Assembly (NCBI RefSeq): GCF_036688685.1
Contig: NZ_JAQQPS010000007.1
Coordinates: 2,013-66,012 of the forward strand
Source: Massilia sp. S19_KUP03_FR1
GTDB lineage: Bacteria; Pseudomonadota; Gammaproteobacteria; Burkholderiales; Burkholderiaceae_D
Length of the DNA: 64,000 nt
Reading direction: 5' to 3'
The notes under the pieces were generated by a model. The model saw only the letters and a list, made by a program, of their open reading frames with translations, was not told the DNA's origin and did no database searches. Shown piece by piece: positions 3,714 through 31,016 of this stretch (positions within the stretch are counted from its first letter, which is position 1; the number at the start of each line of letters is the position of its first letter). The position numbers and the translations under genes were made by a program.

Positions 3714-5123
3714 TTAGTGCTGGTATGCACCGATATCGAAACCGACCGATGCATTGCGTGCCTTGCCGTCGATGTCCGTCGCAGGGGCATTCGTGGCCGT
3801 ACCGCGCGCGATGGCCGGCGAGCTGGCACTCAGGTGGAAGTCCGGCGTGGTCGCCGTGGACGAATAGCCAATGAACAACGGGTCCGAGCTGACGGTACCG
3901 GTGGCCGTCAGGCCGTTGCGCAAGCTGATCGCGGTGCCGTTCTTGTACACCAGGTTGTTGGTGTAGCGGTTGCCGGTACCGGTCTTGCCCTGCTCCGAGA
4001 TGCCGATGCCATTGTTGTACAGAATGTTGTTGGCCACGATGGTGTTGTTGTTGCCGCCCGAGGTGAAGTAAAAGTCGCCGCCGCCGACGATGATGCCGTA
4101 GTGCGAATCGGTCACCGTGTTGTTGGTGATGATGACATTGGTCGCGTCGTGCCAGAGGTGGATCGCCGCTTCGCCGACGCGGTAGACCAGGTTATTTTTC
4201 ACGCTGCCGGAGGTCGACACATAGATGCCCTGGATGAATTTGCACGCCTTCGGCCCGATGTCGTTGACGGTGTTGGCGACGATGTCGTCATTGACCCCCT
4301 TGTAATAGCTGTCCACGCCGATGGCCGAGCCGCCGGCGCTGGTGCACGCGGCCGCATTGGCGATGTGGTGTACATGGTTTTCCTGGATCATGTCGTACGA
4401 GCCACCGCTATACAGGCCATGCAGCCAGAGCTTGCCCGTACCTGGCTTCGAGCCGTCGACATCGAAACCGACGATGCTGACGTAATTGCCGCGGTTATCC
4501 CAGGCATAGTCGGTCGACGAACTGGCCGGGGGCACGATCTTCGCGCCCCACTTGGTGGTCGAAACAAAATAGATGCGCGCGCCGGCCGTGCCGCTGGCGG
4601 TGGTCTTGATGCCGCCGGCATAGGTGCCAGGGGCGATCCAGACGGTGGTGCCGGCCTTGGTGGCCGCCTGTGCCGCACGCTTGAGGGTTTTGAAAGGTGC
4701 GGCCTTGGTACCGGCCGCGCTGTCGGAACCGGTCGGGGCGACGTAGTAATTGATGTTGGTGGCCGGGATGGTGGCGGCAGCGGTCACGTCGATGGCGACC
4801 GCGCTGGCCAGCAGTTTCGGGCTGCCGTCGGCGGCGAATGTGGGTGCGGCTTCTGGCGCGGCGTCGGCGCTCAATGGATGGCTGGCGTAACCGGCCAGGT
4901 CGAAACTGCCATCGGCGGCCGGGGCGCTATCGGCGACGGCCGGGGTGTTGCTGGCGGCATCGGTGACGATGCTGCTCGCGACGTAGCCGGCGGCCTGGCT
5001 GGTCTGGGCGGCGCCGCTGTCGGAAGGGCTGCCACCACCGCAGGCGGTAAGAAGAACAGCAGCGCTGCAGGCGATCAGGGCGTTGATGCGGACATCCGAA
5101 GCAAACGTGGTGAATTTCTTCAT
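3714..5123 (-). CDS. Lipoprotein with right-handed parallel beta-helix (pectate-lyase fold) repeat domain
   Basis: Signal peptide plus lipobox LLTACGGG. Low-complexity Ala/Ser linker. Repeated NNxI(V)xNN beta-helix rungs (NNNTIVANNILYNNGIGI). Confidence 0.8.
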   Translation of the reverse strand: MKKFTTFASDVRINALIACSAAVLLTACGGGSPSDSGAAQTSQAAGYVASSIVTDAASNTPAVADSAPAADGSFDLAGYASHPLSADAAPEAAPTFAADGSPKLLASAVAIDVTAAATIPATNINYYVAPTGSDSAAGTKAAPFKTLKRAAQAATKAGTTVWIAPGTYAGGIKTTASGTAGARIYFVSTTKWGAKIVPPASSSTDYAWDNRGNYVSIVGFDVDGSKPGTGKLWLHGLYSGGSYDMIQENHVHHIANAAACTSAGGSAIGVDSYYKGVNDDIVANTVNDIGPKACKFIQGIYVSTSGSVKNNLVYRVGEAAIHLWHDATNVIITNNTVTDSHYGIIVGGGDFYFTSGGNNNTIVANNILYNNGIGISEQGKTGTGNRYTNNLVYKNGTAISLRNGLTATGTVSSDPLFIGYSSTATTPDFHLSASSPAIARGTATNAPATDIDGKARNASVGFDIGAYQH

Positions 5124-5323: not shown

Positions 5324-6751
5324 TTAATGCTGGTATGCGCCGATATCAAAACCGACCGAGGCGTTACGCGCCTTGCCATCGATGTCTGTCGCCGGGGCAT
5401 TCGTGGCCGTGCCGCGCCCGATGGCAGGCGAGCTGGCGCTCAGGTGGAAGTTCGGCGTGGCCGCCGTGGACGAATAGCCGACGAACAGCGGCTCCGAGCT
5501 GACGGTACCGGTGGCCGTCAGGCCGTTGCGCAGGCTGATCGCGGTGCCGTTCTTGTACACCAGGTTATTGGTGTAACGGTTGCCGGTACCGGTCTTGCCC
5601 TGCTCCGAGATGCCGATGCCGTTGTTGTACAGAATGTTGTTGGCCACGATGGTGTTGTTGTTGCCGCCCGAGGTGAAGTAAAAGTCGCCGCCGCCGACGA
5701 TGATGCCGTAGTGCGAATCGGTCACCGTGTTGTTGGTGATGATGACATTGGTCGCGTCGTGCCAGAGGTGGATCGCCGCTTCGCCGACGCGGTAAACCAG
5801 ATTGTTTTTTACGGTGCCGGAGGTCGACACATAGATGCCCTGGATGAATTTGCAGGCCTTCGGCCCGATGTCGTTGACGGTGTTGGCGACGATGTCGTCC
5901 TTGACACCCTTGTAGTAGCTGTCCACGCCGATGGCCGAGCCGCCGGCGCTGGTGCACGCGGCCTTGTTGGCGATGTGGTGTACGTGGTTTTCCTGGATCA
6001 TGTCGTAGGAGCCACCGCTATACAGGCCATGCAGCCAGAGCTTGCCCGAACCCGGCTTCGAGCCATCGACATCGAAACCGATGATGCTGACGTAATTGCC
6101 GCGGTTATCCCAGGCGTAGTCGGTCGACGAACTGGCCGGGGGCACGATCTTCGCGCCCCACTTGGTGGTCGAAACAAAATAGATGCGCGCGCCGGCCGTG
6201 CCGCTGGCGGTGGTCTTGATGCCGCCGGCATAGGTGCCAGGGGCGATCCAGACCGTGGTGCCGGCCTTGGTGGCCGCCTGTGCCGCGCGCTTGAGGGTTT
6301 TGAAAGGTGCGGCCTTGGTGCCGGCCGCGCTGTCGGAACCGGTCGGGGCGACGTAGTAATTGATGTTGGTGGCCGGGATGGTGGCGGCGGCGGTGACGTC
6401 GATGGCGACCGCGCTGGCCAGCAGTTTCGGGCTGCCGTCGGCGGCGAATGTGGGCGCCGCCTGTGGTTCGGCGTCGGCGGTCAACGGATGGGCGCCGTAG
6501 CCGGCCAGGTCGAAACTGGCATCGGCGGCCGGGGCGGCATCGGCGACGGCCGGGGTGGTTTCTGCTGCGGACGTTGCAACTTCCGGAGAAGCGACTACGC
6601 CACTATTGTACGAATAGCCAGCGCTCTGCACCTGTTGGTCGGCGCCGGTATCGGACTGGCCGCCACCGCAGGCGGTGAGCAGGACAGCGGCGCTGCAGGC
6701 GATCAGGGCGTTGAGGCGGACATCCGTAGCAAACGTGGTGAGCTTTTTCAT
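5324..6751 (-). CDS. Lipoprotein with right-handed parallel beta-helix repeat domain (tandem paralog of 3714..5123)
   Basis: Near-identical to the upstream paralog over about 1 kb of nucleotide sequence. The N-terminal linker differs. Lipobox LLTACGGG. Confidence 0.8.
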   Translation of the reverse strand: MKKLTTFATDVRLNALIACSAAVLLTACGGGQSDTGADQQVQSAGYSYNSGVVASPEVATSAAETTPAVADAAPAADASFDLAGYGAHPLTADAEPQAAPTFAADGSPKLLASAVAIDVTAAATIPATNINYYVAPTGSDSAAGTKAAPFKTLKRAAQAATKAGTTVWIAPGTYAGGIKTTASGTAGARIYFVSTTKWGAKIVPPASSSTDYAWDNRGNYVSIIGFDVDGSKPGSGKLWLHGLYSGGSYDMIQENHVHHIANKAACTSAGGSAIGVDSYYKGVKDDIVANTVNDIGPKACKFIQGIYVSTSGTVKNNLVYRVGEAAIHLWHDATNVIITNNTVTDSHYGIIVGGGDFYFTSGGNNNTIVANNILYNNGIGISEQGKTGTGNRYTNNLVYKNGTAISLRNGLTATGTVSSEPLFVGYSSTAATPNFHLSASSPAIGRGTATNAPATDIDGKARNASVGFDIGAYQH

Positions 6752-6974: not shown

Positions 6975-7352
6975 ATGGAATCCGTTTTACATTTGAAGCC
7001 GGCTTTGAAAGACGGCGAAATCTATGCTGGCCTGATCTTGGGGAAGGATGGCCAGCATGACTATCACGTCGTGCTGTTGCCCGACGACGCCGGCGATGTC
7101 AGCTGGACGCTGGCGCGCAGCTGGGCCGACCAGCACGGCGGCGAACTGCCCAGCTGCCGCGAGCTGTCGCTGCTGTTCGCCAATCTGCGCGAGCAATTTC
7201 AGCGCGAGTGGTACTGGTCGAGCGAGCAGCACCGCACGCGCATCCAGCTGGTGTGGGGAGAGAATTTTGCCAGTGGAATACAAACCGCGTATGGCCGCCA
7301 GTTCCGGGGCCACGCGCGGGCAGTGCGGCGCGTGGCCATCGACGGGCATTGA
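6975..7352 (+). CDS. DUF1566 (Lcl C-terminal domain)-like protein
   Basis: GGELPSCRELSLLF...EWYWSSEQ pattern is typical of DUF1566. ATG at 6975; the longer TTG-initiated ORF from 6819 is less likely. Confidence 0.5.
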   Translation: MESVLHLKPALKDGEIYAGLILGKDGQHDYHVVLLPDDAGDVSWTLARSWADQHGGELPSCRELSLLFANLREQFQREWYWSSEQHRTRIQLVWGENFASGIQTAYGRQFRGHARAVRRVAIDGH

Positions 7353-7396
7353 CGGCGCTATCAGCCAGCGCAAAGCAACCGCGCCTAGGCCCCGCT

Positions 7397-8827
7397 TTAC
7401 TTCACCAGCACGTCGGCCCGTCCGATCGGCTGGTCCGTATTGGCCAAAAACCACGCCGTCGTGCTCATCACGGCGACATGGCGGCGCAGGTTTTCGGGGT
7501 CGACCTTGTCGAAGGTATCGGCCGGCGAGTGGTGGTAATTAAAATAGTCCGAGCTGTCGATGAGCGGCTCGAAACTCGGCACGCCCGCCAGTTCCAGGCC
7601 CGACAGATCGCCGGTACCGAGTTCGTCTTCGCGGATGAAGCCACCTGCGCCGATCGGTAGCAGGGCCGCCTTCAGGGGCGCGAAGTATTGCACGGCCTGG
7701 CGCGACACACTGGCGCGCACGCCGAATGCGCGCCCCGAGCCATTGTCGTCTTCATAGGCGGCGAAATGTTTCTCGGTATTCCCCGCTTCTGCGGTCAAAT
7801 AGGCGCGTGCACCCTTCTGGCCATTTTCTTCGTTCATCCAGGCAATCATGCGGATGGTGCGGCGCGGCTTGAAGTCGAGCTTTTTGAGCGTGTCGATCAC
7901 CGCCATCGCGCTGGTGACACCGGTGGCGTCGTCGTTGGCGCCGGTGGCCAGGTCCCACGAGTCGAGGTGACCGGACACGATGACGATTTCATTGGCCTTG
8001 TCGGTGCCCGGCAGGTCGGCGATGACGTTGAAGCTGTCGGCATCGGGCAGGTTTTGCGGGGTCAGTGTCAGGTGCATCGTCAGCGCGCCGCGCTTGGCCA
8101 GACGCGTCATCAACAGCGCGTCTTCAATGGTGACGGCGGCAGCGGGAATGCGGGCACCGTCCTGCAGGCCGGCACTGCCGGCGTGGGTGAGCCGGTAGAC
8201 CGCGCCGCCAACCGCGCGCACCAGCGCCGCCGCCGCACCCATTTCTGCAGCCATGCGCGGGCCGGCCACGCGGTAGGCGACCGCTTGTCCATAGGCTGTA
8301 CCAGCCTGGCCGCGGTCGGCCATTTTCTGGTCGAATGGCACATCGAACAGCACGATGCGGCCCTTTACTTCGGCCGCGCGCGCCTTGAGTTCATCGAAGC
8401 TGTGCAGGACAATGACTTCGGCCGTGATGCCGGCCGCCGGCGTCGCGCCCGAACCGCCCAGCGCGGCCAGCACCACCTTTTGCGACACGCCGGCCGGTTT
8501 GCCGGCGTAGTTGACCAGCTCAGCGCTCTCGGCGCCGCGCACCCAATGTGGCACCTTGACTGGCTGCAAGGTCACCTTCGCACCGAGTTTGCGCATGGCC
8601 TCGGCCACCTGCGTCACTGCGGCGGCTGCGCCGACCGAACCCGACAGGCGCGGGCCGATCAGGTCGGTCATCTCTTCCAGGCGAGTGTAGGCATAGTCGC
8701 TTTTCATTGCGGCATCGCGCACCTGCGCCAGTGCCGCCGCTTCGTTGGCGGGCGCGGCAGCAAAGGCGGAGAGTGAAACCAGGGAACTTGCAACGGCAAT
8801 AACGAGGGGCAGCGGGCGGCACTTCAT
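7397..8827 (-). CDS. M28 family zinc aminopeptidase, secreted (PA-domain containing)
   Basis: Signal peptide MKCRPLPLVIAVASSLVSLSAFAA. Zn-ligand motifs HLDSWD, NDDATG and EENG. SD AAGGA 9 nt upstream of the ATG at 8827. Confidence 0.85.
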   Translation of the reverse strand: MKCRPLPLVIAVASSLVSLSAFAAAPANEAAALAQVRDAAMKSDYAYTRLEEMTDLIGPRLSGSVGAAAAVTQVAEAMRKLGAKVTLQPVKVPHWVRGAESAELVNYAGKPAGVSQKVVLAALGGSGATPAAGITAEVIVLHSFDELKARAAEVKGRIVLFDVPFDQKMADRGQAGTAYGQAVAYRVAGPRMAAEMGAAAALVRAVGGAVYRLTHAGSAGLQDGARIPAAAVTIEDALLMTRLAKRGALTMHLTLTPQNLPDADSFNVIADLPGTDKANEIVIVSGHLDSWDLATGANDDATGVTSAMAVIDTLKKLDFKPRRTIRMIAWMNEENGQKGARAYLTAEAGNTEKHFAAYEDDNGSGRAFGVRASVSRQAVQYFAPLKAALLPIGAGGFIREDELGTGDLSGLELAGVPSFEPLIDSSDYFNYHHSPADTFDKVDPENLRRHVAVMSTTAWFLANTDQPIGRADVLVK

Positions 8828-8909
8828 GCGACAAATCCTTGAATGTTGAGTGAGACAAAACAATACCCCATTCAATGCTGCCGCGCAGCAAAATATTGCC
8901 GTACTTACA

Positions 8910-10046
8910 TCACGCAGGAACCAGGCGCACCAGCGTGATTTCGGAGGGCGCGCCGAAGCGTTTCGGCGGGCCCCAGTAGCCGGTGCCGCGGCTGGTGTAG
9001 ACCCACATCGCGCCGAGCCGGTTCAGGCCGCTGACGTAAGGCTGCTGCAGCGGCACGAACAGGTTCCACGGGAAAAACTGGCCGCCATGCGTGTGGCCCG
9101 ACAGTTGCAGGTCAAAGCCGGCCGCCGCGGCGGCGGTCGCGCTGCGCGGCTGGTGCGCCAGCAGCACCCGCAGGGCCAGGCCCTTCGGCGCGCCATGGGC
9201 CGCCTGGTGCGGATCGCTCTTGTGTGCGGGATTGAAATGGTGCGCCGTGTAGTCGGCCACGCCGGCGATCATCAGGCTGGCCGTGCCGCGCGTACGCACC
9301 ACGTGTTCGTTCATCAGCACCGTCACGCCGAGGCGGCGCAGCTCGGCAATCCAGGCCTCCGCGCCGGAATAGTATTCGTGGTTGCCGGTGACAAAAAACG
9401 TGCCGTCCGGCGCGGACAGGCGGGACAGCGGCGCCGTGTGCCGGGACAGGCTGGCCACGCTGCCATCAACCAGGTCGCCGGTGATGGCGATCGCATCGGC
9501 CTCCAGCGAATTGACCTTGTCGACGATGGCGCTGAGGTACTTGTGCTTGATGGTCGGGCCGACGTGGATGTCGCTGATCTGGGCGATCGTGTAGCCGTCC
9601 AGCGCGGGTGGCAAGCCCACCACCGGCACATGGACGTGCTTGACGTGCGCCAGCCGGCGCGCATTGACCAGACCGACCAGGGTGACGGCCACGGCCAGCA
9701 CAGGAACGCCGACGGCTGTTTCGCGCGCCGCATCTGGCCAGGTGAAGGGCAGCAGCTGCAGCGCCAGCAGCAGCAGGTCGCGCCCGAAGGTGGCGACCAG
9801 CAGCGATGAAAACAGCCCCATTGCCAGCAGTCCGGCCCAGGGCAGCTGTTCGGCGCCACGGCGGCGCTTGAAGTATGGCGACAGCAAACCGGTGGGCACC
9901 AGCAGCGTCGACGCCACCAGCAGCACGATGCCGGTCAGCGCGCCGGCAATACCCAGCCCCATGGCGGGAATCAGGCGCAGACCGATATACAGATGCAGGA
10001 TGACCAGCAGGAACAGAACGGTGGCAATGGTGCGGCGTGGTGGCAT
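8910..10046 (-). CDS. Membrane-anchored calcineurin-like metallophosphoesterase
   Basis: N-terminal TM helices then GDxHG (DIHVGP), GDLVDG and GNHEY phosphoesterase motifs. Start taken at MPPRR; an alternative upstream start at 10088 is possible. Confidence 0.8.
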   Translation of the reverse strand: MPPRRTIATVLFLLVILHLYIGLRLIPAMGLGIAGALTGIVLLVASTLLVPTGLLSPYFKRRRGAEQLPWAGLLAMGLFSSLLVATFGRDLLLLALQLLPFTWPDAARETAVGVPVLAVAVTLVGLVNARRLAHVKHVHVPVVGLPPALDGYTIAQISDIHVGPTIKHKYLSAIVDKVNSLEADAIAITGDLVDGSVASLSRHTAPLSRLSAPDGTFFVTGNHEYYSGAEAWIAELRRLGVTVLMNEHVVRTRGTASLMIAGVADYTAHHFNPAHKSDPHQAAHGAPKGLALRVLLAHQPRSATAAAAAGFDLQLSGHTHGGQFFPWNLFVPLQQPYVSGLNRLGAMWVYTSRGTGYWGPPKRFGAPSEITLVRLVPA

Positions 10047-10145
10047 GAAGGATCCGGATTGTGCAAAAGAAGCTTGTACATGGGGCAATCAAGTCAATCC
10101 GCAAGCGCACCCGACAAAGGAATGTTGCATCAATTTAGGTAAATG

Positions 10146-10175
10146 TTACAAAGGGCTATTGACATGTAATAATCT
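10146..10175 (+). promoter_or_regulatory. Putative sigma70-type promoter upstream of the glycine-zipper gene
   Basis: TTACAA/TTGACA-like -35 boxes and an AATAAT -10-like box in the AT-rich stretch about 100 nt upstream of 10275. Confidence 0.3.
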
Positions 10176-10274
10176 GTATTAGCGCGTGGCGTGCGGCAGG
10201 TGCAGGCATATAGTCCATCCATGCCCTGGCGCTTAGCGATCATTCGATCACCGTTAAGGGAAAAGGATAATGCC

Positions 10275-10739
10275 ATGTTCAAGAACAAAGTCTTTGGTGC
10301 GGTGCTGGTAGCCGCGGCCGCTGTTGCCACGGCAACCGTTTCGACCTCGGCCATGGCGCAAGATCGCGGTGTGAATACCGCCGTCGGCGCGGTGCTCGGT
10401 GCGGCAGTCGGCGGTAGCGCCGGTGGCCGCAACGGCGCCATTGTCGGTGGCGTACTCGGCGCCGCGGTCGGTAATTCGATTGGTTCCCGCAACGACCGCT
10501 ATTACGATAATCGCAACTATGACAACCGCGGCTACGCCAGCGTCGGTTACTACCAGCCAGCGCCAGTGTATGTCGAACCGCGCCCGGTGTACGTTGAATC
10601 GCGTCCGGTCTACTACGCCGAGCCGCGCTACTACGCACCGCCAGTGGTCTACTACGGCGGCGGCCGTGGCTACTACGGCGGTGGCCGGGGCTACCACGAT
10701 CGCGGCCACGGCGACCGCGGTTGGCACCACGGCCGTTAA
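10275..10739 (+). CDS. Glycine-zipper (Gly-zip 2TM / 17-kDa-antigen-like) secreted protein with Tyr/Pro-rich C-terminal repeats
   Basis: SD AAGGA upstream. Signal peptide. GAVLGAAVGGSAGG..GGVLGAAVGNSIG glycine zipper. PVYVEPRPVYVESRPVYY and YYGGGRGYYGGGRGY repeats. Confidence 0.8.
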   Translation: MFKNKVFGAVLVAAAAVATATVSTSAMAQDRGVNTAVGAVLGAAVGGSAGGRNGAIVGGVLGAAVGNSIGSRNDRYYDNRNYDNRGYASVGYYQPAPVYVEPRPVYVESRPVYYAEPRYYAPPVVYYGGGRGYYGGGRGYHDRGHGDRGWHHGR

Positions 10740-10760
10740 GCTGCACCCGCTTGCAAACGA

Positions 10761-10788
10761 ACCGCGTCCTGGACGCGGTTTTTTTTCG
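10761..10788 (+). terminator. Rho-independent terminator (bidirectional-looking)
   Basis: ACCGCGTCC-TGGA-CGCGGT hairpin followed by a T8 run. Confidence 0.7.
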
Positions 10789-10890
10789 TGGCGCTGTTCG
10801 CGCACATCGGGCAGTCTTCCCGTCAGCCGGGCTCGGCAGTGGCAAGCAGCAAGCGTAATGCCTTCGGTATTTGCTGGCCGCGCCGCGAAC

Positions 10891-11134
10891 CGGCTCAGCC
10901 AGCTCTTGAAGAAGGCATCCCAGCCGTTCACACTCTGGAGGTGAATCGCGCCGCGCGCGCGTTCTCCGGCCGCACATTGCCAATGCGTGCCGGATGCCGC
11001 TGCCTGCGCGAAACGCCGGTAGGCCATCGCGCCATCTGTGAAGGATGAAAAAAGTCATCACCGGCTGAGCGAATCCGACACCAGAAAAAGAAGAACATCA
11101 CTTGCCGTATATGCAACTACGCTTTTACACTGTG
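10891..11134. repeat. About 245-bp direct repeat, copy 1 (about 80% identical to 13967..14213)
   Basis: Alignable block ending in the conserved TATATGCAACTAC-N-TTTTACACTGTG. The minus strand carries a MAY.. ORF start, but its reading frame is not conserved between the two copies. Confidence 0.7.
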
Positions 11135-11644
11135 CCTCGAGCGACTTGCGCCCTCGGCCAAAAGCTGTGGTTCGCCGCTAGCCCAAATCTCTCTTTATTG
11201 CGCAAAAAATTATGCATGCCAGGCGCTCGCGATAGCAAACAACGGTGCTGGCGATCAGCTGCTCTTCCTTCGTTCTAACGACTGGTACGAGGCAGAAGTT
11301 TACTACTGGTCACACGAAACCGGTGACTTGACTAAGGTGGCAGAGGATTTTGCCCAGCTCGAACGTCTGTACATGCCGCAAGAAACTGGCCGTGCTGCTC
11401 CACCGTCCGCTTTGGGCAGGGAGCTGCCTGGCTTGATAGTTTGCGGGTTTTTCGCCTTGGCAACCCGCTATGCTTGCTCGACAGGCCGAAACAGGGCAAA
11501 AGCTGTCACACCACGCCCAACTAGACATCCATAGTGAACGGATACAAATTTTGTTCGTAAATTCATCGGTACAAAAATGGTAATCGCCAGTAGTTTCAAG
11601 ATGATACTATTAGTTTCTAATTAATTTTGAATCGGTGTCGTCGC

Positions 11645-12265
11645 ATGAATTCGTCAACAGTATCCGGTGTAGTCACTCGCCGTACCTCCCGGGCCGTTTT
11701 CGACATCCTGCTGTTTTGGTTGGCGTTTCACTCTGTTGCGCAAGCCGACAGCCAATATCTGCAACGCGGTGCAGGCGCGGCAGGCGGCATCGTCGCAGGC
11801 ATTTACATACACGAGTTAGGCCATGCGGCCGTGTCCGACTTCGCCGGTGCAGAACACATCCGCATCCGCATCCCGGGTGCGCACTGCAAGCTGCTTTGCG
11901 GGCAGACAGATGTCACCTGGTCGGCGCGTCCCAGCGCCCCGCAGAGGCGCCTGATTACTGTGGCTGGTTTTGTGAGCAGTAACGTGGCGGCAGAAATTAT
12001 GCTTCAGCACGAAAGCTTGGCCCGCTCCGGCTTCGGCCAAGGGTTGATCGCGACCAACTTGTATTCGAACGCGGTGCACGTGTTTTCGTATTACACCAAG
12101 GTGCGCGGTCGGAACGGCTATCAAGGCAACGATATCGATTCCTTTGAATTGGCAGGTGGCAACCCCCACCTGTTGTCGGCGGGGCTGCTGGCCTATTCGG
12201 CGTATGCCCTGCATCGCATGCACAAGAAACATATACCGGTGCTGTTCGTTAGTGCCCGTTTCTGA
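11645..12265 (+). CDS. Putative secreted HExxH zinc metallopeptidase-like protein
   Basis: Signal peptide (LLFWLAFHSVAQA). IHELGHAAV motif. Low-GC context. Confidence 0.5.
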   Translation: MNSSTVSGVVTRRTSRAVFDILLFWLAFHSVAQADSQYLQRGAGAAGGIVAGIYIHELGHAAVSDFAGAEHIRIRIPGAHCKLLCGQTDVTWSARPSAPQRRLITVAGFVSSNVAAEIMLQHESLARSGFGQGLIATNLYSNAVHVFSYYTKVRGRNGYQGNDIDSFELAGGNPHLLSAGLLAYSAYALHRMHKKHIPVLFVSARF

Positions 12266-12507
12266 CGGGTGATCGCGTCTCGTGCTCTTGCCAAAGGCGA
12301 AAGTTCGCGTCTTGGCCCAGCGCAGCTCCCTTTTGGCTTTCTGGTTTGCGAAAATGCGCCACGACTTTAGCCAGGGTACAGAGGTATTTTCCCTCTCGAA
12401 CCTTCCCTTTGGCTGTTGGATTCGCCACTACATCGGTAGTCACCTTTCAGCGATCATGTTTCGAACGGCTGCGATGGGTCGGATAGATACTGTAGGGCCA
12501 GCCTACG

Positions 12508-12570
12508 AGCTTTTACTGTTTACATTCTGATATGCCGAGCCGAAAACAGCCACGTTCGGCCAACTGTGGA
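12508..12570 (+). repeat. Structured intergenic repeat family, partial copy A (3' half)
   Basis: GATATGCCGAGCCGAAAACAGCCACGTTCGGCCAA. The hairpin CCGAA...TTCGG replaces the inner palindrome. Confidence 0.4.
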
Positions 12571-12627
12571 TACAGTTACAATGTAATAAATATTACTTTG
12601 GAAATACCCAAATTCTGAAAGAAGCAA

Positions 12628-13167
12628 GTGAAAAAATCCTCTCCAACGTGGAGTGATGTCAAAACGAAGTTGGGGGACTTCGACCGCGCTGGCATGCTGG
12701 CCTTGGTGCAGGATATGTACGCCGCCAGCAAAGAAAACCGATCATTTCTGCAGGCTCGATTTGGCCTGGGCGCGGATACCCTCAAGTCCTACAAAACGAC
12801 GATTGCGCGTTGGCTTTGGCCGGACATCTCCAGGGGCCAGGACACTTCGATTTCTAAGGCCAAGAAAGCAATAGCTGACTACAAGAAGGCCGTCGGACGA
12901 CCGGAGGACCAGGCTGAACTGATGACCTTCTATTGCGAGCAGGCGGCAGGCTTTTGCCGCGATGTTGGCTTCTCGGATGAGCGCTTTTTCGTTTCGTTGA
13001 TGGGCATGTTCAGCAAGGCGCTGAAATTGACCCTAACCCTGGCCCCTGTGCCGCGCGATAGTTTGCTGGAGCGTCTCGACGAAGTGAGTCGAATCAGCCA
13101 GGACTTTGGCTACGGGGTGGGTGACGAAATGAACGACCTGCTCGACGAGTACTCGGCTAATGACTGA
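12628..13167 (+). CDS. Hypothetical protein (islet cassette gene)
   Basis: 179-aa ORF with GTG start, unremarkable composition and no recognisable domain. Stop abuts the next ORF. Confidence 0.45.
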   Translation: MKKSSPTWSDVKTKLGDFDRAGMLALVQDMYAASKENRSFLQARFGLGADTLKSYKTTIARWLWPDISRGQDTSISKAKKAIADYKKAVGRPEDQAELMTFYCEQAAGFCRDVGFSDERFFVSLMGMFSKALKLTLTLAPVPRDSLLERLDEVSRISQDFGYGVGDEMNDLLDEYSAND

Positions 13168-13284
13168 GTGGACGGCGACTATCGGTCGATTTCGGCCAGA
13201 ACCGGACTTTCGCAGATCGATAGCGTTCGGCCAACAGCCGCCGTTCGCAAACAGTACTCCCGACGCCATTTCAATGATCACGAC

Positions 13285-13800
13285 ATGACCTCAATCGACG
13301 AAACTTCAAGAGCTATTTTCAGCGCTGCTCGAGAAGGCGACGCAGATACGTTGCTGAGTCTGATAGGCACGAGCCAAGACCGTTTACACGCGCAAACGCC
13401 TTTCGGAACACTTTTGCACATTACGTACGCACGCGGCGATATCGCACTTGTTAAGGAGTTAATTAACCTTGGCGCCGATATTGATCGACGCGGCGGCACG
13501 TTCGACGGTACCGCAATCAATCTGGCAGCATCAAAAGGACAGGTCGAGATCGTCGAGTATCTACTTGAATGTCAGGCCGAGTTGGACGTGAGCGATCCGG
13601 AGCGCAAACTTCTTTGGGGCGGAATCGACTCCGGCAGCGTCGAGATCGTGAAACTACTCGTGGCAGCAGGGATCGACGCAACGGTCAGATATTCAGGTAA
13701 GAACATGACGAATATGGGCGCACTCGATTTTGCTATCGAGAGGGGGCAGGTTGAAGTCGCCGAGTTTCTACAGACTCTGCCTTCGATGCGTGTCAATTGA
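13285..13800 (+). CDS. Ankyrin-repeat protein
   Basis: About 4 ANK repeats (TPLHITYARGDIALVKELINLGADID, TAINLAASKGQVEIVEYLLE, GALDFAIERGQVEVAEFL). ATG at 13285; the ORF is also open from a GTG at 13168. Confidence 0.75.
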   Translation: MTSIDETSRAIFSAAREGDADTLLSLIGTSQDRLHAQTPFGTLLHITYARGDIALVKELINLGADIDRRGGTFDGTAINLAASKGQVEIVEYLLECQAELDVSDPERKLLWGGIDSGSVEIVKLLVAAGIDATVRYSGKNMTNMGALDFAIERGQVEVAEFLQTLPSMRVN

Positions 13801-13966
13801 GAGGCGCGTGTTTTGCCGGCGAACCTCGCTGCCGTAGCAATCGAGGCAACGTCTGGTTTTGGGCGAAACCGACTGGTCAATCACACACGGCTGGCCAGTG
13901 AAATTTTTATCACGTGTAGATCGCAACGAAACAATGACCTCCGCCGCGTCAGTGACGGCTATTAAC

Positions 13967-14213
13967 CGGCGCAGCCAGCCCTTGAACCGGGCATGCCAGC
14001 CGTATTCATTCGGGATCTGGATCGCGCCTCGCGCGCGTTCTCCGGCCCGCACATTGACAAATGCGTGGCGGATGCCGCTGTCCTGCGCGAAATGCCAGTA
14101 GGCCATCGCGCCATCTGTGGAGGATGAAAAAAGTTATCACGGGCCGAGCAGAACCGTCCGCAGAAAAATAAAAACATCCCTTGCGGTATATGCAACTACT
14201 CTTTTACACTGTG
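13967..14213. repeat. About 245-bp direct repeat, copy 2
   Basis: Aligns with 10891..11134. It carries three 1-nt indels relative to copy 1, which shift the MAY-frame ORF. This is consistent with a non-coding or decayed element. Confidence 0.7.
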
Positions 14214-14520
14214 TCTACGCTGTGCAGAAGAAGCATTCAGAACGGATTAAACGTTGGGACGAGGGACGCGCAGTACGTAGAAACAACCCCAAAAATTTTC
14301 AATGATTTGCAGACATGCGTCTCAGCTGCGAAGTTGCTTTGGACGGGGCCTACGTAAGTGCGCTGCACGTGCAGTCCACTTGGCTTCTGAGCCGCGACTT
14401 AATTGATCCGCCTTGGATCGGCAGCCGCCTGTCGAGACAGTCTGCAACTTTTCCAGCTCGGTAACGTGCTATGGTCAATCAAGAGGCTGGATTTTTCCAC
14501 GACCTGCACCAACCAATTCA

Positions 14521-14952
14521 ATGAGGACCAAGTTGGAGAGTGATCGCATAGCAGAATTCGTCGGCCAGACAAATGTATCTCCTGCGCAGTTGTCCGCGGC
14601 TGAGCGCGATACTGTAGTGCGGATTCTCAACAGCCAATTCGCCGTCAACGCAAAATCACTCAGGCCATGGGACGCAACGAATGCCCCAGGCGGCGTACAA
14701 ACTGCAATCGGTTGTGCGTTGATATCAAATTACGTAGCTGACTCCCCGTGTCTGGTATTTTCGTCGGGTGCACCTTCGGTATGGAACTTTTCCAACGGGT
14801 CGGATTTACTGCTTTTCTTAAAGGCTTCGCCACCTTTCGAATTCTATGTCTGCGATGACTTAGCAACCTACATGCTTTGTTATACCGATCATGACTTCAT
14901 TATTGGATGGGGGAAGAGCACTGCATGGGTGGAGCAACTTCGGGCAGATTGA
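14521..14952 (+). CDS. Hypothetical small protein (immunity-protein-like)
   Basis: 143-aa ORF in the low-GC islet. It is followed by a structured repeat. No SD; a TTG at 14413 is an alternative start. Confidence 0.4.
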   Translation: MRTKLESDRIAEFVGQTNVSPAQLSAAERDTVVRILNSQFAVNAKSLRPWDATNAPGGVQTAIGCALISNYVADSPCLVFSSGAPSVWNFSNGSDLLLFLKASPPFEFYVCDDLATYMLCYTDHDFIIGWGKSTAWVEQLRAD

Positions 14953-14989
14953 TCCATCAAACGGACTTGCCGGCATGTCCGCTCAGGGT

Positions 14990-15076
14990 CGTTTCCGGTC
15001 TGTCCTGGCTGCCGCTGAATTTTCGCCATGGCATGCTGTTATGCCGAGTCGACCGGCCGAATTCGGCCAAAAGCGG
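14990..15076 (+). repeat. Structured intergenic repeat family, copy B
   Basis: 5' box GTTTCCGGTCTGTCCTGGCTGCCGCT. CCGCT(gaa)TTTT/AAAAGCGG outer stem. Perfect inner palindrome CCGGCCGAATTCGGCC. 3' GGCCAAA. Confidence 0.6.
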
Positions 15077-15130
15077 ACATAAACTAACGGACCGGCTCTG
15101 TCATTACCATAATCTTCAAGATGTACACAC

Positions 15131-15544
15131 ATGAGAAAAATGTACACTGTACTCCTGCTGTCGACTTTCTTGGTGGGCGCCCGTGCGCAAGCTGAACATA
15201 AAGAAGACTGCGATCGGGCTGAATACTCCCAGCAGTATGCTGCCGGCTTTAATCGCGAGCTAAATGGCGCGCTGGATAGATTCAAAAACCAGGATAAAAG
15301 CTCTCGATCCAAGTTGGACGGGATGAAAGCTGCCAGTGATTTCAAGGTGCAACTTTTGTCGCTGGACGGTATTCCTATGATAGCCGGGGGCAACAAAGCT
15401 GCGGAATTGCGCGCGACGTGTTTGCTTGGGCCAAATGCGATCAGCAAAGCTGACGTTTTGTATGCTGTCACGGAGCGGGCGTGGAAGTTACTCGAATCCA
15501 AGGTCGCAGCGGAAGCGCAAGTGAAAAAAGTTACCATGCCATAA
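15131..15544 (+). CDS. Small secreted hypothetical protein
   Basis: Signal peptide MRKMYTVLLLSTFLVGARAQA. 137 aa. Lys/Glu-rich. Confidence 0.55.
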   Translation: MRKMYTVLLLSTFLVGARAQAEHKEDCDRAEYSQQYAAGFNRELNGALDRFKNQDKSSRSKLDGMKAASDFKVQLLSLDGIPMIAGGNKAAELRATCLLGPNAISKADVLYAVTERAWKLLESKVAAEAQVKKVTMP

Positions 15545-15590
15545 AGTACGTTAGTGCAGGCCTGGCTCGCTAGCCAGATCCGCTTTGGGA

Positions 15591-15680
15591 CGTTTTCTGC
15601 CTGTGGCGCCACCCGCTCGATTTTCAACGTGCCCACCTGCTATGCCCGGCCGAAAGACCGGGTTGGGCCAAAATCGCTCC
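15591..15680 (+). repeat. Structured intergenic repeat family, copy C
   Basis: CGTTTTCTGCCTGTGGCGCCACCCGCT box. CGATTTT/AAAATCG outer stem. Inner hairpin CCCGGCCGAAAGACCGGG. GGCCAAA tail. Stem sequences differ from copy B but keep the pairing. Confidence 0.6.
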
Positions 15681-15702
15681 TGGATCAAGAAAGGAACTGC
15701 AA

Positions 15703-15866
15703 TGCCTCAGCTTTTTGCGCATGACCAAATGGACGTTTGGCACGACGGTTCTGCGATTTGTGTTATCGCTGTAGGTTCACATGGTGATCCATTAGATCTA
15801 TCCGAAAGCGAAGTCGAAGCTCTCATTGCGAAGCTGCAGGCGTCGCTGAAAAAAGCGCGTTCTTGA
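15703..15866 (+). CDS. Small hypothetical protein (54 aa)
   Basis: SD AAGGAA 5 nt before the ATG. Predicted amphipathic C-terminal helix. It sits between repeat copies C and D. Confidence 0.4.
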
Positions 15867-15892
15867 TCTGTCGGCCTGGAATTCCGCTATGG

Positions 15893-15975
15893 GTTGTTTC
15901 CGGCCTGTGGCGCCGGCCGCTGTATTTCTGACCTGGCAACTCGCCATATTCGGCCAGTAGCTGACAAAAGGTGCC
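15893..15975 (+). repeat. Structured intergenic repeat family, copy D (3' part degenerate)
   Basis: GTTTCCGGCCTGTGGCGCCGGCCGCT 5' box is shared with copies B and C. Confidence 0.45.
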
Positions 15976-16119
15976 GGGATATGCCCACCGATTGTCGGGA
16001 GTGAGCTCGAGAACGCATTTGATACACAACAATATTAATTTTACGACAAGTATGGCGTGGTCAATGATTGCCGGACGGTACGGCATGTCGCTGCTGCCAT
16101 CGATACGGGAACCGACACA

Positions 16120-16902
16120 ATGAAACGATTCATTTTGGCCGCCAGCTTGCTGGCGGGTAGCTTGGCCGGCCTTGCACAGGCCGCCGACAAGGCCGACGAT
16201 GCCCAGCTGCGCACGGCCATCGCAGGCAGCAACCGGAGTAGCACCAACGTGGCGCGCGATACTTGGCGCCATCCTTACGAAACGCTCACTTTCTTCGGCA
16301 TCAAGCCGACCATGACGGTGGTCGAACTGATGCCGGAAGGCGGCTGGTACACCGAGATCCTGGCGCCCTACCTGCGCCAGGACGGCAAACTGATCAGCGC
16401 CGGCCTCATACTCAGGAACTTGCTGGAGTCAAACCCGGCGGTCTATGGCAAGGTCGTGCGGGGCGCCTTCAATCCGCCAAAGGCCATCTACAACTTCGCC
16501 CCGCCAAACAGCGTTGACATGGTGCTCACCCTGCGCAACGTGCACAACTTCGTCGAGCTTGGCGACGACAAGGTCAAGGACATGTTCAAGGCGCTATACA
16601 CTAGCCTGAAGCCGGGCGGCGTGCTGGGCGTGACCGATCACCGCCTGCCAGAATCCATGCCGCAAGATGCCACGGCCACGAGCGGCTACGTCCACGAGTC
16701 GTATGTGATCAAAATGGCCGAGAGCGCCGGCTTCAAGCTGGCCGCCAAATCCGAGCTCAACGCCAATCCAAAGGACAAGGCCGACCACAAGGGCGGCGTG
16801 TGGGCGCTGCCGCCGACCCTGAGCAACGCCGCACTTGACCGCGACAAATACCAGGCCATCGGCGAGAGCGACCGCATGACGCTCAAGTTCGTGAAACCAT
16901 AA
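16120..16902 (+). CDS. Secreted class I SAM-dependent methyltransferase family protein
   Basis: Signal peptide MKRFILAASLLAGSLAGLAQA. VVELMPEGGWYTEIL SAM-binding-like motif. LKPGGVLGV. Confidence 0.7.
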   Translation: MKRFILAASLLAGSLAGLAQAADKADDAQLRTAIAGSNRSSTNVARDTWRHPYETLTFFGIKPTMTVVELMPEGGWYTEILAPYLRQDGKLISAGLILRNLLESNPAVYGKVVRGAFNPPKAIYNFAPPNSVDMVLTLRNVHNFVELGDDKVKDMFKALYTSLKPGGVLGVTDHRLPESMPQDATATSGYVHESYVIKMAESAGFKLAAKSELNANPKDKADHKGGVWALPPTLSNAALDRDKYQAIGESDRMTLKFVKP

Positions 16903-17171
16903 CCGGCCAGGGCTCGCCACCTGCGCAGGCGTGCCGGCGGCGTGCGCGTCAGCGCGTTGTGGCTGCGCCGGCAAGCGAGGCAGCGAAACCGCTGCAAGCC
17001 GCTGGCCTGGCCACAGCGGTGCACCCATTGGCTGGCGCAGTGCGGGCAGGCCAGCCATGCGCACAGTTGCGCCAGCGCCGCCGGCGCCAGCACGGCCCCT
17101 TCCAGGGCCTCGAGCAATTGATTGAAAGACAGTGCCTCCATCACCTCCCCCCCATGGCTTACCTCGACCAT
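16900..17171 (-). mobile_element. IS1595/IS1-like transposase N-terminal zinc-ribbon remnant (truncated pseudogene)
   Basis: LACPHCAS...[17 protein letters not shown] (CxxC...CxxC transposase zinc ribbon) then PPARLRRW. Only about 90 codons of homology, then the frame runs antisense into the methyltransferase gene. Confidence 0.45.
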
Positions 17172-17277
17172 GGGTGAAAATGCGGCGGATGGATTTGGTT
17201 CGTCCACTTAACGCGAACCGTTCCTTTTTTCGGACGCCCCCGGCTACGCCCTGGCAGGATCAGCGACGGGGGCAAGC

Positions 17278-18180
17278 ATGCAGGCAGCAGGACAGGCAAT
17301 CACGATGGGCAGCGGCCAGTACATGCTGCGCGAACGCCTCGCCGCGTCCAGCTACGGCATTGTCTGGCGCGCCGACGGCCCGACCGGCCCGGTTGCGATC
17401 AAACTTGTCAATGCGGCGCAGATGGCCAGCGCCGACGCCACCGAACACCATGTCTGGACTGCGTCCGCCCAGCGCGAGATTGCCTTCCTGCGCGCGCTGG
17501 CGCCGTGGGATGCACGCCACATCGTGCGCCTGCTCGGCAGCGGCGAGGTCGACGGTTTGCCGGCCATGGCCCTTGAACTGCTCGACGGCGACCTGGCGCG
17601 CCACGACCTGTCACAACTCGATGCCGGCCAGGCGCTGGCCTGGATCGGCCAGCTGAACCAGGCGCTGGCCAAGGTGCACAGTCACGGCTGGCGCTATCTG
17701 GACCTGAAACCGGCGAATATCCTGCTCGACCGGCGCGCCAGCCTGGTCAAACTGGCCGACTTCGGCACCAACCGTGCACTGGCCGACGTTGCCGCCCACA
17801 CCTACGCCGGCACCGCCAGCTGGCAGGCGCCGGAACAGTTTTTCCCGGATCCGCAGCAGCGCTACCGCAGCGACGCGAGAAGCGATTATTTTGCACTGGG
17901 CGCATTGCTGTTTTACCTGGTGTCGGGCGGCCAGCCGCTGCGCTACGGATCGGCGTGCGGCGCCGCATGGCGCGCCCACGGCCGCGCCGGCGCCGTGCAA
18001 CTGCGCGACCAGCACCAGGGCGCCCTGCCGGCTGTCCTGCACGACGATGAAGCCGCGCTGTTCGCGCGGCGCGGCGGCGCGCGCGCGCTGCCACTCCTGC
18101 GCGCCCTGCTTGCCGTCGAACCGGCGCGGCGCCCGCGCCACGCCCTCGACATCAGCCGCGCCCTGGCGAGCGCCGCATGA
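17278..18180 (+). CDS. Ser/Thr protein kinase (Hanks-type)
   Basis: VAIK, HRDLKPANILLD-like (YLDLKPANILLD), DFG and APE motifs. Stop overlaps the next gene (ATGA). Confidence 0.85.
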   Translation: MQAAGQAITMGSGQYMLRERLAASSYGIVWRADGPTGPVAIKLVNAAQMASADATEHHVWTASAQREIAFLRALAPWDARHIVRLLGSGEVDGLPAMALELLDGDLARHDLSQLDAGQALAWIGQLNQALAKVHSHGWRYLDLKPANILLDRRASLVKLADFGTNRALADVAAHTYAGTASWQAPEQFFPDPQQRYRSDARSDYFALGALLFYLVSGGQPLRYGSACGAAWRAHGRAGAVQLRDQHQGALPAVLHDDEAALFARRGGARALPLLRALLAVEPARRPRHALDISRALASAA

Positions 18181-24348: not shown

Positions 24349-25311
24349 ATGCCCATCTCCCCGCCTCTTCCGTATCGCATCGACCTTGCCGCCCGCTCCA
24401 GTATTGGCGCCGGTCCCGACGCCCGCGGGGAAAACCAGGATAACTATTTGACCATCGATGCCGACGGCAACGCCTGCTATCTGGTCGGGCAAGTTGCCTG
24501 CCGGCGCCACGTGGCCGGCTGGCCGCGCGGGCACGCGCGCATGGCCGTGCTCGACGGCATGGGTGGCCACGGCCACGGGCGCGAAGCGGCCGAAGCGGTG
24601 GTCGCGGGCCTGTTGTACCTGCCGGCCTGCAGCAGCCTCGCCGTCCTGGAACAGGCGCTCGACGCCATGCATGCCGACCTGCAGCACGCCTTTGCGCGCG
24701 ATGCCGGGCGGCGTCCGGGCACCACCCTGACGCTGCTGGAAATTCCGCCAGGCCAGCAGGCCATGCTCTACCACGTCGGCGATTCGCGCCTGTACGCCGT
24801 GGCGGACAGCACCATTACCCCCTTGACGGTCGACCATGTGCCGGCCACGTCGTTCGCCATGGCTGGCACGCTGGGCGAAGACGACTGGTGGGAGCAAGTA
24901 CACGGTGAACACCGCCCGCAGATTTCCCAGGCATTCATGCTGGGCAACGCGTTCAGCAATCCGGCAAGGTTGGCCGACGCCTTGTTTCCACTGACACCCG
25001 CCAACTTGCCACCGTGGCTGCGCCTGCTGGCCGACCGCCGCGTCCTCGTCCTGCAGCCGCATGTGGCGTATGTGCTGGCCACCGACGGTTTCTGGTCGTG
25101 TCCGCAGGCGCTGAAATGGATGGCGCGCTGGCCGGCGCTGGCGCGGGGCCGCAGCGACGCCAGGGCGATCGTGGCGGCGCTGTTCGACGCACTGGAAAAC
25201 CATCCGCCCGCCGGCCTGCAGCCGGACAATGCCACGGCAGTGGCGCTGCGCCTGCTGCCGGTTGCCGCAGCGGACGAAACGGCGCTGCCGGAACGCCTGG
25301 GCAGCAACTAA
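24349..25311 (+). CDS. PP2C-family Ser/Thr protein phosphatase
   Basis: ENQDN, LDGMGGHGHG, GTTLTLL and VGDSRLY motifs. Confidence 0.85.
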   Translation: MPISPPLPYRIDLAARSSIGAGPDARGENQDNYLTIDADGNACYLVGQVACRRHVAGWPRGHARMAVLDGMGGHGHGREAAEAVVAGLLYLPACSSLAVLEQALDAMHADLQHAFARDAGRRPGTTLTLLEIPPGQQAMLYHVGDSRLYAVADSTITPLTVDHVPATSFAMAGTLGEDDWWEQVHGEHRPQISQAFMLGNAFSNPARLADALFPLTPANLPPWLRLLADRRVLVLQPHVAYVLATDGFWSCPQALKWMARWPALARGRSDARAIVAALFDALENHPPAGLQPDNATAVALRLLPVAAADETALPERLGSN

Positions 25312-31009: not shown

Positions 31010-31016
31010 CAAGAGG

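Follow-up and report, generated by a model that had tools for sequence, protein, structure and literature searches.

An orphan piece of a probable integron-like, non-IntI gene-cassette array within a dead IS1595-family element of Massilia

The window analysed here, a 64,000-nt stretch of Massilia sp. S19_KUP03_FR1 (contig NZ_JAQQPS010000007.1, positions 2,013-66,012, forward strand; assembly GCF_036688685.1), contains an island of small co-oriented genes set apart by structured repeats. A preliminary description, made from the sequence alone, had placed it at 11135-16100, as a low-GC islet of seven plus-strand open reading frames (ORFs) between a glycine-zipper gene with a terminator and the stub of an IS1/IS1595-like transposase, and had suggested that it was a horizontally acquired array of cassettes. 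The compositional part of that account, which gave 65-70% for the background, holds: every 1-kb bin between 11001 and 16000 has a GC content of 0.52-0.55, against 0.65-0.74 over most of the window, and GC at third codon positions (GC3) is 0.51-0.69 in the islet ORFs, against 0.83-0.87 in the native flanking genes. The extent had to be redrawn. The inserted unit spans 10789-17224 (6436 bp), has the ends of an IS1595-family insertion sequence (IS) and an 8-bp target duplication, TTTTTTCG, just outside both of them, and is thus bigger than the islet as first delimited, taking in a further gene (orf7), a zinc-ribbon stub and two IS fragments of ~250 nt. We argue that this island is probably an orphan, recombinase-less piece of an array that resembles an integron but is not of the IntI type, lodged inside a dead IS1595-type transposon.

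The insertion is evident from comparison with related loci (designated L002-L136, from related genomes, metagenomes or plasmids). The metallophosphoesterase encoded beside the islet has its closest relative, at 87% amino acid identity, in a metagenome-assembled genome (L002), followed by relatives at ~70% in many Massilia genomes. In L002 and about 20 further loci the order of genes is M28 peptidase, metallophosphoesterase, glycine-zipper protein, Ser/Thr kinase and FtsW-like protein, and the glycine-zipper and kinase genes are adjacent in every locus that has both (about 20 of the first 24, from Massilia and other Oxalobacteraceae). None of the islet genes, orf7 included, occurs at the syntenic site in L002 or in those ~20 loci, which agrees with the horizontal acquisition proposed in the preliminary description, where the presence of the same genes at this position in relatives had been named as the counter-evidence. 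In a nucleotide alignment, window positions 10012-10785 match L002 as far as its terminator, and 17236-17994 match it again 18 nt later; because homology stops at the terminator and resumes 18 nt on, the breaks at 10785 and 17236 place the inserted DNA at ~10786-17235 by alignment, and the duplication narrows this to the limits given above. We conclude that 10789-17224 is a single insertion, located in the T-tract of the native glycine-zipper gene's terminator. Among the loci compared, this genome alone carries an insertion at this site, and its recent acquisition by horizontal transfer is supported.

The ends of the insertion were assigned with the help of a full-length relative in L082, which encodes a 317-aa transposase and supplied the reference ends. 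The island's left end (TGGCGCTGTTCGCG..., then the transposase stop region) corresponds in the alignment to the right end of the L082 element, and the right end of the island (reverse complement GGAACGGTTCGCGTTAAGTGGACGAACC...) aligns with the left end of that element, whose insertion is also in a T-run after a terminator. An 8-bp target duplication is a trait of the IS1595 family. The island thus has the features of the family, namely terminal inverted repeats, the 8-bp duplication, a T-run target and, in fragments only, the N-terminal zinc ribbon and the DDE domain (PF12762, DDE_Tnp_IS1595) that is carried by the homologous transposases P0003 and P0004. It differs from known IS1595 elements and IS-bounded compounds in that the transposase survives as three fragments and its middle is replaced by a foreign array, the cargo between the IS ends amounting to ~5.6 kb.

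No intact transposase gene is present in the island: about residues 95-203 are gone, and of the three minus-strand fragments that are left the C-terminal ones carry stops and a frameshift. The N-terminal stub is recognized by NCBIfam IS1_IS1595_Zn (NF050000; E 5.5e-9) and by tblastn with P0003 (E 3e-22). The preliminary description had identified both this stub and the glycine-zipper terminator (10759-10785) correctly as flanking features, except that the stub is part of the unit and not its neighbour. The two C-terminal fragments, modules 1 and 2, were matched by P0004 in a tblastn search confined to the island (module 1, 10888-11137, 56% identity, E 6e-13; module 2, 58% identity, E 3e-16), and the match of NCBIfam transpos_IS1595 to the 10789-11137 region is weak. 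They are ~250 nt long and 85% identical, encode residues 204-258 with the TDG and N...K motifs, and have in common an internal lesion, a ~45-nt insertion with two stops, because of which we conclude that both descend from one already dead copy; module 1 runs on, past a frameshift, toward the end of the gene. Module 2 interrupts repeat C2 and module 1 abuts a 5'-truncated SUKH gene, from which it follows that the IS had inserted into the array and rearranged it. As its transposase gene is destroyed, the carrier is a dead element, immobile unless transposase is supplied in trans.

Two further observations concern these IS sequences. At 8840-10640, L082 has the full-length IS1595-family element followed head-to-tail by an internally deleted copy, in which amino acids 1-97 are joined to ~220-317; both copies lie in T-runs after a terminator, and they provide an independent case of internal deletion in such an IS. 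In the window, a weak sequence resembling a 3' repeat arm (CTCGGCCAAAAGCTGTG, 11153-11169) lies 16 nt past module 1, and a faint, equally weak trace of transposase amino acids 179-189 at 11265-11233 conflicts with reading it as a 3' arm. The coordinates of all features of the island are collected in Table 1.

Table 1. Features of the inserted unit and its junctions, in window coordinates
Feature	Position	Strand	Evidence
Terminator of glycine-zipper gene	10759-10785	.	as in the preliminary description
Target-site duplication TTTTTTCG, left copy, in terminator T-tract	10781-10788	.	exact match at both junctions
IS1595-family 3' end: right inverted repeat TGGCGCTGTTCGCG..., transposase stop region, pseudogene codons ~204-267 (includes module 1)	10789-11137	-	tblastn
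SUKH (SMI1/KNR4) immunity-type gene fragment, 5'-truncated, abuts module 1	11139-11399	+	Pfam
Repeat A (5' arm, centre, 3' arm)	11404-11510	+	nhmmer E 2e-21
orf1, 206 aa, signal-like N-terminus, HELGH motif	11645-12265	+	public gene call, GC3 0.67
Repeat B, part of cassette common with L116	12464-12570	+	nhmmer E 5e-5
orf2, 179 aa, large conserved family without assigned function	12628-13167	+	public gene call, homologues
Repeat C, short: diverged 5' arm, then two 3'-arm copies	13168-13242	+	arm matches at 13193 and 13228; by eye
Ankyrin-repeat protein (ank), 171 aa	13285-13800	+	Pfam Ank_2 E 8e-17; PADLOC PDC-M72A E 1e-12
Repeat C2: 5' arm and part of centre, cut by module 2	13851-13963	+	arm match GTCTGGTTTTGGGCG at 13851; by eye
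Module 2, second transposase fragment, codons ~204-258	13964-14216	-	repeat detection, tblastn
Repeat D	14405-14499	+	nhmmer E 1e-11
orf4, 145 aa, DUF6756-type family	14515-14952	+	family size, domain matches of relatives
Repeat E, best-preserved copy	14974-15082	+	nhmmer E 7e-28
orf5, 137 aa, signal-peptide-like N-terminus	15131-15544	+	public gene call
Repeat F	15576-15681	+	nhmmer E 9e-25
orf6, 54 aa, putative gene (ORF only)	15702-15866	+	open reading frame
Repeat G, shortened centre	15880-15976	+	nhmmer E 4e-18
orf7, 260 aa, signal peptide, weak methyltransferase similarity	16120-16902	+	public gene call
Transposase N-terminal stub, aa 1-94, zinc ribbon, 20-aa internal gap	16920-17141	-	NCBIfam, tblastn
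IS1595-family left inverted repeat; reverse complement GGAACGGTTCGCG...	17212-17224	-	aligns with left ends of both L082 elements
Target-site duplication TTTTTTCG, right copy	17225-17232	.	exact match at both junctions

The spacers between the islet ORFs are occupied by a repeat family of ~105 nt, with six significant and two partial copies. Copies A, B and D-G were found by nhmmer with a family profile made from window and outside copies (E 5e-5 to 7e-28), in keeping with the structured repeats already reported in the preliminary description, and nhmmer matched the family nowhere else in the 64 kb. The consensus is GTCCGCTTTGGGTCG-nnn-CCGGCC(TGTCG)...centre...(CGAC)GGCCGG-GTT-CGGCCAAAAGCGGAC; its 5' and 3' arms are inverted copies of each other and alternate along arrays. 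On both strands the consensus is predicted to form a long hairpin (-29 kcal/mol, z about -4.4), in which a 9+5-bp outer stem with one conserved G.A mismatch is followed by a 3x3 internal loop and then by more stems. Repeat E also folds as a hairpin (DNA fold z -2.4 on the plus strand and -3.6 on the minus strand); the single window copies, folded one by one, gave a weak signal or none, and RNAalifold did not recover the long stem. When pairs were counted in 20 repeat copies, on a structure that we had named ourselves, 74% of cells paired, against 23-47% when the partner was slid.

The length of the hairpin loop varies from ~6 to ~750 nt. There are short forms, ~60-nt versions with a small loop, and minimal forms, which are 24-bp palindromes G(T/G)C(C/T)GCTTT-N6-AAAGC(G/A)GAC (also GnCCGCTTT-N6-AAAGCGGAC); these palindromes stand at the ends of arrays in L116, L124 and L125, and also inside the arrays of L086, L089, L111 and Janthinobacterium lividum that are described below. 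A simple scan for sigma-70 promoters gave none in the repeats, and a sigma-54-like reading of the conserved centre (TGGCAAC...TATGC), made by eye, was dropped as its spacing is one base off.

The islet contains six credible ORFs, all on the plus strand; orf6 among them is an ORF only, and a seventh, orf7, begins just past the end coordinate of the preliminary description. In an identical public contig (reads SRR23879938) orf1, orf2, ank, orf5 and orf7 have been called as genes. In scans with PADLOC, NCBIfam and Pfam the islet ORFs gave matches only for the ankyrin protein, as had been predicted (Pfam E 8e-17), weakly for M50B and methyltransferase families, and for the SUKH fragment. The proposal that orf1 is a secreted metallopeptidase is supported in part, by its HExxH motif, its signal-like N-terminus and a match to Peptidase_M50B (E 0.027) that lies under the cut-off. 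Homologues of orf2 number 3756, of which the top one, with 93% amino acid identity, sits in the array of L116; their genomic neighbourhoods are too diverse to point to a partner recombinase. The orf4 family has 247 representatives at E<=1e-3, and 18 of 30 relatives match PF20541 (DUF6756). No family match was found for orf5 in Pfam or for orf6 in a library scan.

The immunity-like content that had been suggested for the islet is supported in part. It is represented in the window by the one truncated SUKH gene, which matches Pfam SMI1_KNR4 (E 6e-6, 27.3 bits against a cut-off of 25.4) over model positions 71-121 of 125, and also SUKH_6 (E 5e-6), and in related arrays by genes for Tdi1, contact-dependent growth inhibition (CDI) immunity and DUF7660 proteins; orf4, orf5 and orf6 matched no immunity family in the PADLOC, NCBIfam and Pfam scans. 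The GC3 of orf7 is 0.81, although it lies inside the insertion, and because of this we conclude that its origin differs from that of the low-GC cassettes. An Rfam scan of 9-19 kb at E<=1 returned nothing relevant, and no tRNA genes were found in the window.

Repeats of this family separate small co-oriented genes in other genomes too, as the cassette-array idea of the preliminary description would predict. Outside the window, a pattern of 21 specified bases, derived from repeats F and G in their 5' portion, matched 30 metagenome loci, several of them with the whole element of ~100 nt. Repeats and small ORFs of one orientation take turns, with a period of ~565 nt, in L086, L089 and L111 (one organism, a 370-kb contig) and in L102; the L102 array has four or five cassettes and is flanked by native genes, arsH-like on one side and NUDIX/folK/pcnB on the other, and no integrase was found in the flanks of these four arrays. 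A weak plasmid match led to J. lividum EIF2 plasmid NZ_CP049829.1, where 11 co-oriented small genes form an array that includes annotated genes for the immunity protein Tdi1 of type VI secretion (T6SS) and a CDI immunity protein. A 24-kb stretch of this plasmid has ~20 distinct arm positions (29 listed matches), against 1.35 in shuffles, and all 11 annotated coding sequences have a 3' arm 24-408 nt upstream. Further arrays were found in L116, in Massilia arenae (L124), in Alcaligenes and in Pectobacterium. That of L116 carries genes for a class D beta-lactamase and a histidine/phenylalanine ammonia-lyase-type protein and an IS110 element, and a DUF7660 gene was found in the array of a relative. 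The repeats do not occur in the native intergenic flanks of the window, L086, L102, L115, L116 or L125, where all copies are inside the arrays. We conclude that the cargo of the island is a piece of a gene-cassette array from a lower-GC pool common to Oxalobacteraceae and other Proteobacteria.

The beta-lactamase of L116 scores 291.7 bits with NCBIfam bla_class_D_alt (cut-off 280); it and the IS110-family transposase, which adjoins a repeat arm, were noted at 7141-7917 and 12103-13128. A related form of the repeat, of ~75 nt (ATGTCCGCTATGGGTCGTTTTCTGCCTGTCGC...GGCGAAAGCGGTCAT), occurs singly or as inverted pairs in metagenome contigs without an obvious array (L085, L087, L088, L091, L093-L097, L099-L101, L103-L104, L107-L110 and L112-L113).

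Single cassettes recur in different arrays. Window positions 12476-13185, comprising most of repeat B, orf2 and the 5' arm of repeat C, have a counterpart of 91% identity in L116 (6115-6822), whose adjoining cassettes are different ones; toward the right the identity ends within the 5' arm, after ...CTATCGG and before TCG. L086 and L102 have two consecutive cassettes in common, in a block that starts in the 3' arm, immediately before TCGGCCAAAAGCGGAC, and ends in the 5' arm, immediately after ...TTAGGGTCG. In J. lividum a two-gene block is duplicated, from at or just after the 3' arm to the spacer of the 5' arm. The boundaries of cassettes therefore fall in both arms, beside the conserved nonamers, and a crossover at the 5' arm only, which we had entertained, was dropped because the boundaries in L102/L086 and J. 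lividum are also at the 3' arm. From these sequence comparisons, single cassettes appear to move between arrays.

In L116 a gene for a 208-aa tyrosine recombinase lies between a 5' arm and a 3' arm, that is, inside a repeat. The protein consists of the catalytic domain only (PF00589, E 1e-19) and scores far under the cut-offs of Xer and integron-integrase models. It has at least 8000 homologues, the best 120 of which are 76-98% identical, and their sources include Massilia arenae, M. norwichensis, Noviherbaspirillum, Herminiimonas, Alcaligenes, Castellaniella, Pusillimonas and Pectobacterium; the gene was found on 356 plasmids. Arms also flank it in M. arenae (L124), A. faecalis (L125) and P. 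brasiliense (L136), and partial or rearranged arms (L127-L130) surround distant homologues on plasmids of E. coli, Pseudomonas, Methylomonas and Azonexus.

Two of these loci deserve a separate description. The most compact 'complete' example seen is that of Alcaligenes faecalis CP095873 (L125), an islet at 8000-13000 whose GC content is 0.42-0.49, against 0.55-0.60 around it. Between its two limiting 24-bp palindromic sites it holds the repeat-nested 208-aa recombinase and four ORFs of one orientation, with Lambda_ea8_5 and HNH proteins among their products. In Pectobacterium brasiliense (L136), 7100-11800 has the recombinase and short (~60-nt) arm pairs between co-oriented ORFs, in a region resembling an integrative and conjugative element (ICE), with TraG/TrwB genes and OLD-family and UvrD-like defence genes as neighbours.

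We suggest that each repeat is made of two inversely oriented core sites, each consisting of a 9-bp arm and a second, weaker arm with a 6-bp crossover region between them; site 1 would be GTCCGCTTT-GGGTCG-nnnCCGGCC, and site 2, its inverse, GGCCGGnTT-CGGCCA-AAAGCGGAC. The small genes of such arrays are set apart from one another by the ~105-nt hairpin repeat, or by its ~60-nt or 24-nt short form. The candidate enzyme is the catalytic-domain-only recombinase of 208 aa, which presumably acts on these sites, with strand exchange in the spacer, GGGTCG or CGGCCA. When two sites of like orientation recombine, a unit of 'centre + ORF' or 'ORF + centre' would be cut out or put in, and arrays would be shuffled in this way. 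The substrate may be duplex DNA, as the 24-bp palindromes suggest, or a folded strand as for attC, as the long hairpin suggests. The array probably reached the chromosome by way of the IS: either the whole 6.4-kb unit transposed, or an IS already resident there exchanged its middle, by recombination, for array DNA with IS sequence at its flanks. Because the window has no recombinase, we regard the array as an orphan brought there by IS-mediated movement, and as neither recombinase nor transposase is present, the island is now inert unless both come in trans.

The closest comparison is with classical integrons. Cassette arrays without an integrase, or clusters of attC sites lacking integron-integrases (CALIN), have an IS beside them in 38% of cases, and a conserved feature of attC sites is that the triplet AAC in R'' has its complement, GTT, in R' (Cury et al., 2016; PMC4889954). 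That the island is a remnant of this kind, with divergent attC sites, an IntI encoded elsewhere and an IS that split the array from its integron, is in our judgement unlikely, although much about it is familiar: CALIN are common, and like the present arrays they consist of co-oriented, mostly small genes without assigned function, with imperfect palindromes between them that are more similar within than between arrays, no integrase nearby and an IS beside the array. The repeats moreover have the architecture of attC, an imperfect hairpin in which two boxes pair, the spacer does not, and the loop is of variable size; GTTCGGC, GTTGGGC or ATTCGGC stands at the expected position of R', ORFs end 0-50 nt ahead of the repeat, and some arrays open with TTCGGCC... 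The triplets, however, are not those of attC. The 3' arm has GTT or ATT in most copies, but the conserved AAC is missing from the 5' arm, where the facing triplet (alignment columns 23-25) is variable (GTA, TTT, GAA, GTT and others) and unpaired, whereas seven real class 1 attC sites that we used for comparison all have ...TAAC and GTTA/T... Pairing extends over ~15 + 6 + 9 bp, running 15 bp past the putative core. An integron cassette is an ORF followed by an attC of its own, and crossover falls between G and TT of R'; cassettes here are bounded at or near the 3' arm in some cases and after GGG in the GGGTCG of the 5' arm in others, and minimal 24-bp palindromes exist. The recombinase that is embedded in the repeats is a different one, with 208 aa and a catalytic domain only, against ~320 aa for IntI. 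A tblastn search of the window (64 kb of the genome) and of array loci L085-L114 gave no IntI; the IntI1 probe was 100% identical to IntI1 on more than 5000 plasmids. That these repeats are not canonical attC sites had escaped the preliminary description.

An ordinary acquired operon, in which the intergenic palindromes were of the repetitive extragenic palindrome (REP), REPIN or miniature inverted-repeat transposable element (MITE) type and cassettes had no mobility of their own, would explain why imperfect palindromes of ~100 nt occupy the spacers and why lone copies of the ~75-nt form occur in diverse metagenome contigs. We think this very improbable: in the 64-kb window and the array loci all copies are inside arrays, and not dispersed in the REP/REPIN/MITE manner, the same cassette is found in different arrays with its bounds inside the repeats, and one repeat encloses the gene of a recombinase. 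A further question is that of the order of events. An intact IS1595-family element could have inserted and made the duplication, its middle being swapped only later for that of an IS-flanked array by homologous recombination, which would account for the loss of precisely the transposase middle (~aa 95-203) with both ends and the duplication intact, and for IS pieces that travel with arrays, such as module 2. Because the IS1595 family is reported (ISfinder) to include members with passenger genes, movement in one step is possible as well; we consider the two-step course a possibility of the lesser kind. The idea of an old, fixed native region of odd composition can practically be set aside, as the island is absent at the syntenic site in every related locus with both flanking genes and has a target duplication and IS ends; we found no point in favour of it.

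Our preferred reading, an orphan piece of a non-IntI cassette array inside a dead transposon, must be set against several observations that weigh the other way. A tyrosine recombinase was not found in the window by tblastn or by Pfam searches of neighbouring genes, and because of this the array is linked to the 208-aa enzyme by repeat homology only. Repeat F folds no better than shuffles, and column shuffles reach 72.6% pairing, which indicates a conserved inverted repeat without compensatory change or real covariation. RecA-dependent recombination or template switching between repeats would give the same boundaries in the arms. The repeats were judged against attC by their triplets, pairing and boundaries, and a divergent IntI/attC system may still be involved. 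Transposition of the whole unit and replacement of the middle are both compatible with the data, and most cassettes are without assigned function.

Two other systems resemble these arrays in part. rAID-1 arrays are low-GC, co-directional series of orphan immunity-type genes in Bacteroidales, with intergenic repeats 'reminiscent of integrons' and a full-length XerD-like tyrosine recombinase at the 5' end, and reside on mobile DNA (Ross et al., bioRxiv 10.1101/471110). The window shares with them a row of at least two co-directional lower-GC genes with repetitive intergenic sequence, and the related J. lividum array has the annotated Tdi1 and CDI immunity genes; the host phylum, however, is another, and the recombinase of the present type has 208 aa, is encoded inside a repeat and is absent from the window itself. 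The pdif sites of Acinetobacter plasmids are 28-bp XerC/XerD sites (11-6-11) served by the host Xer system (PMC6449649, PMC13141974). As in that system, small accessory genes are shuffled as discrete modules between short sites in inverse orientation. The arms here are nevertheless 9-6-9, unrelated in sequence, usually 75-85 nt apart as a hairpin and linked to a dedicated recombinase, and the arrays are chromosomal or on large plasmids or ICEs. To our knowledge, the arms GTCCGCTTT and AAAGCGGAC with their 6-nt spacer do not resemble the dif consensus.

We tentatively propose, as a view that may well prove wrong but that we take seriously, that the repeats and the 208-aa recombinase make up a distinct and apparently undescribed cassette system of Proteobacteria, parallel to integrons and rAID-1 but built differently. 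Its cassettes would be bounded by paired inverse 9-6-9 core sites, as ~105-nt hairpins or 24-bp palindromes, with the recombinase gene inside one such site; its arrays would collect immunity, defence and even beta-lactamase genes and be spread by ISs, plasmids and ICEs, and the window would hold an IS-captured orphan fragment. That the cassettes serve in defence or immunity is suggested by the genes annotated in related arrays. A literature search with the repeat sequence returned only unrelated primers, and one for a non-IntI cassette system of this kind found none described, which is weak evidence as coverage was incomplete.

What is new at this locus is the extent of the island, its dead IS1595-family vehicle, and repeats that are not canonical attC and are tied elsewhere to a small tyrosine recombinase. 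If the proposal is right, IntI/attC would not be the only means by which Beta- and Gammaproteobacteria capture and shuffle small accessory genes in the manner of integrons, and a second system with its own small recombinase would feed immunity, defence and resistance genes, of which the class D beta-lactamase cassette in L116 is an example of the last, into chromosomes, plasmids and ICEs; tools that seek only IntI and canonical attC could miss such arrays. The window offers a concrete case of the way in which an orphan array can arrive in another chromosome, enclosed by the two ends of an insertion sequence that is itself dead, and the outcome for this genome is an island of 6.4 kb with precise bounds, recently acquired and without the means to move itself.

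Some other features of the window are recorded here. A second low-GC stretch, at 50-52 kb (0.53-0.54), encodes an Acyl_transf_3 membrane acyltransferase (50003-51103, minus strand) and has no copy of the repeat family. Tandem paralogues of ~470 aa with lipoprotein-like N-termini and DUF1565/right-handed beta-helix matches lie at 3714-5123 and 5324-6751 (both minus strand; GC 0.58-0.64), and a toxin-antitoxin-type pair, Gp49-like (PF05973, E 5e-17) followed by HTH_3, lies at 27189-27593 and 27603-28040 (plus strand) in a GC dip of 0.58. The conserved block beside the insertion site includes a second kinase (17278-18180), an FtsW/RodA-like protein of 759 aa and a PP2C phosphatase (24349-25311). 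A single ORF of 765 aa at 28742-31039 (minus strand) fuses SHOCT, Ser/Thr protein kinase and FGE-sulfatase domains, an unusual combination.

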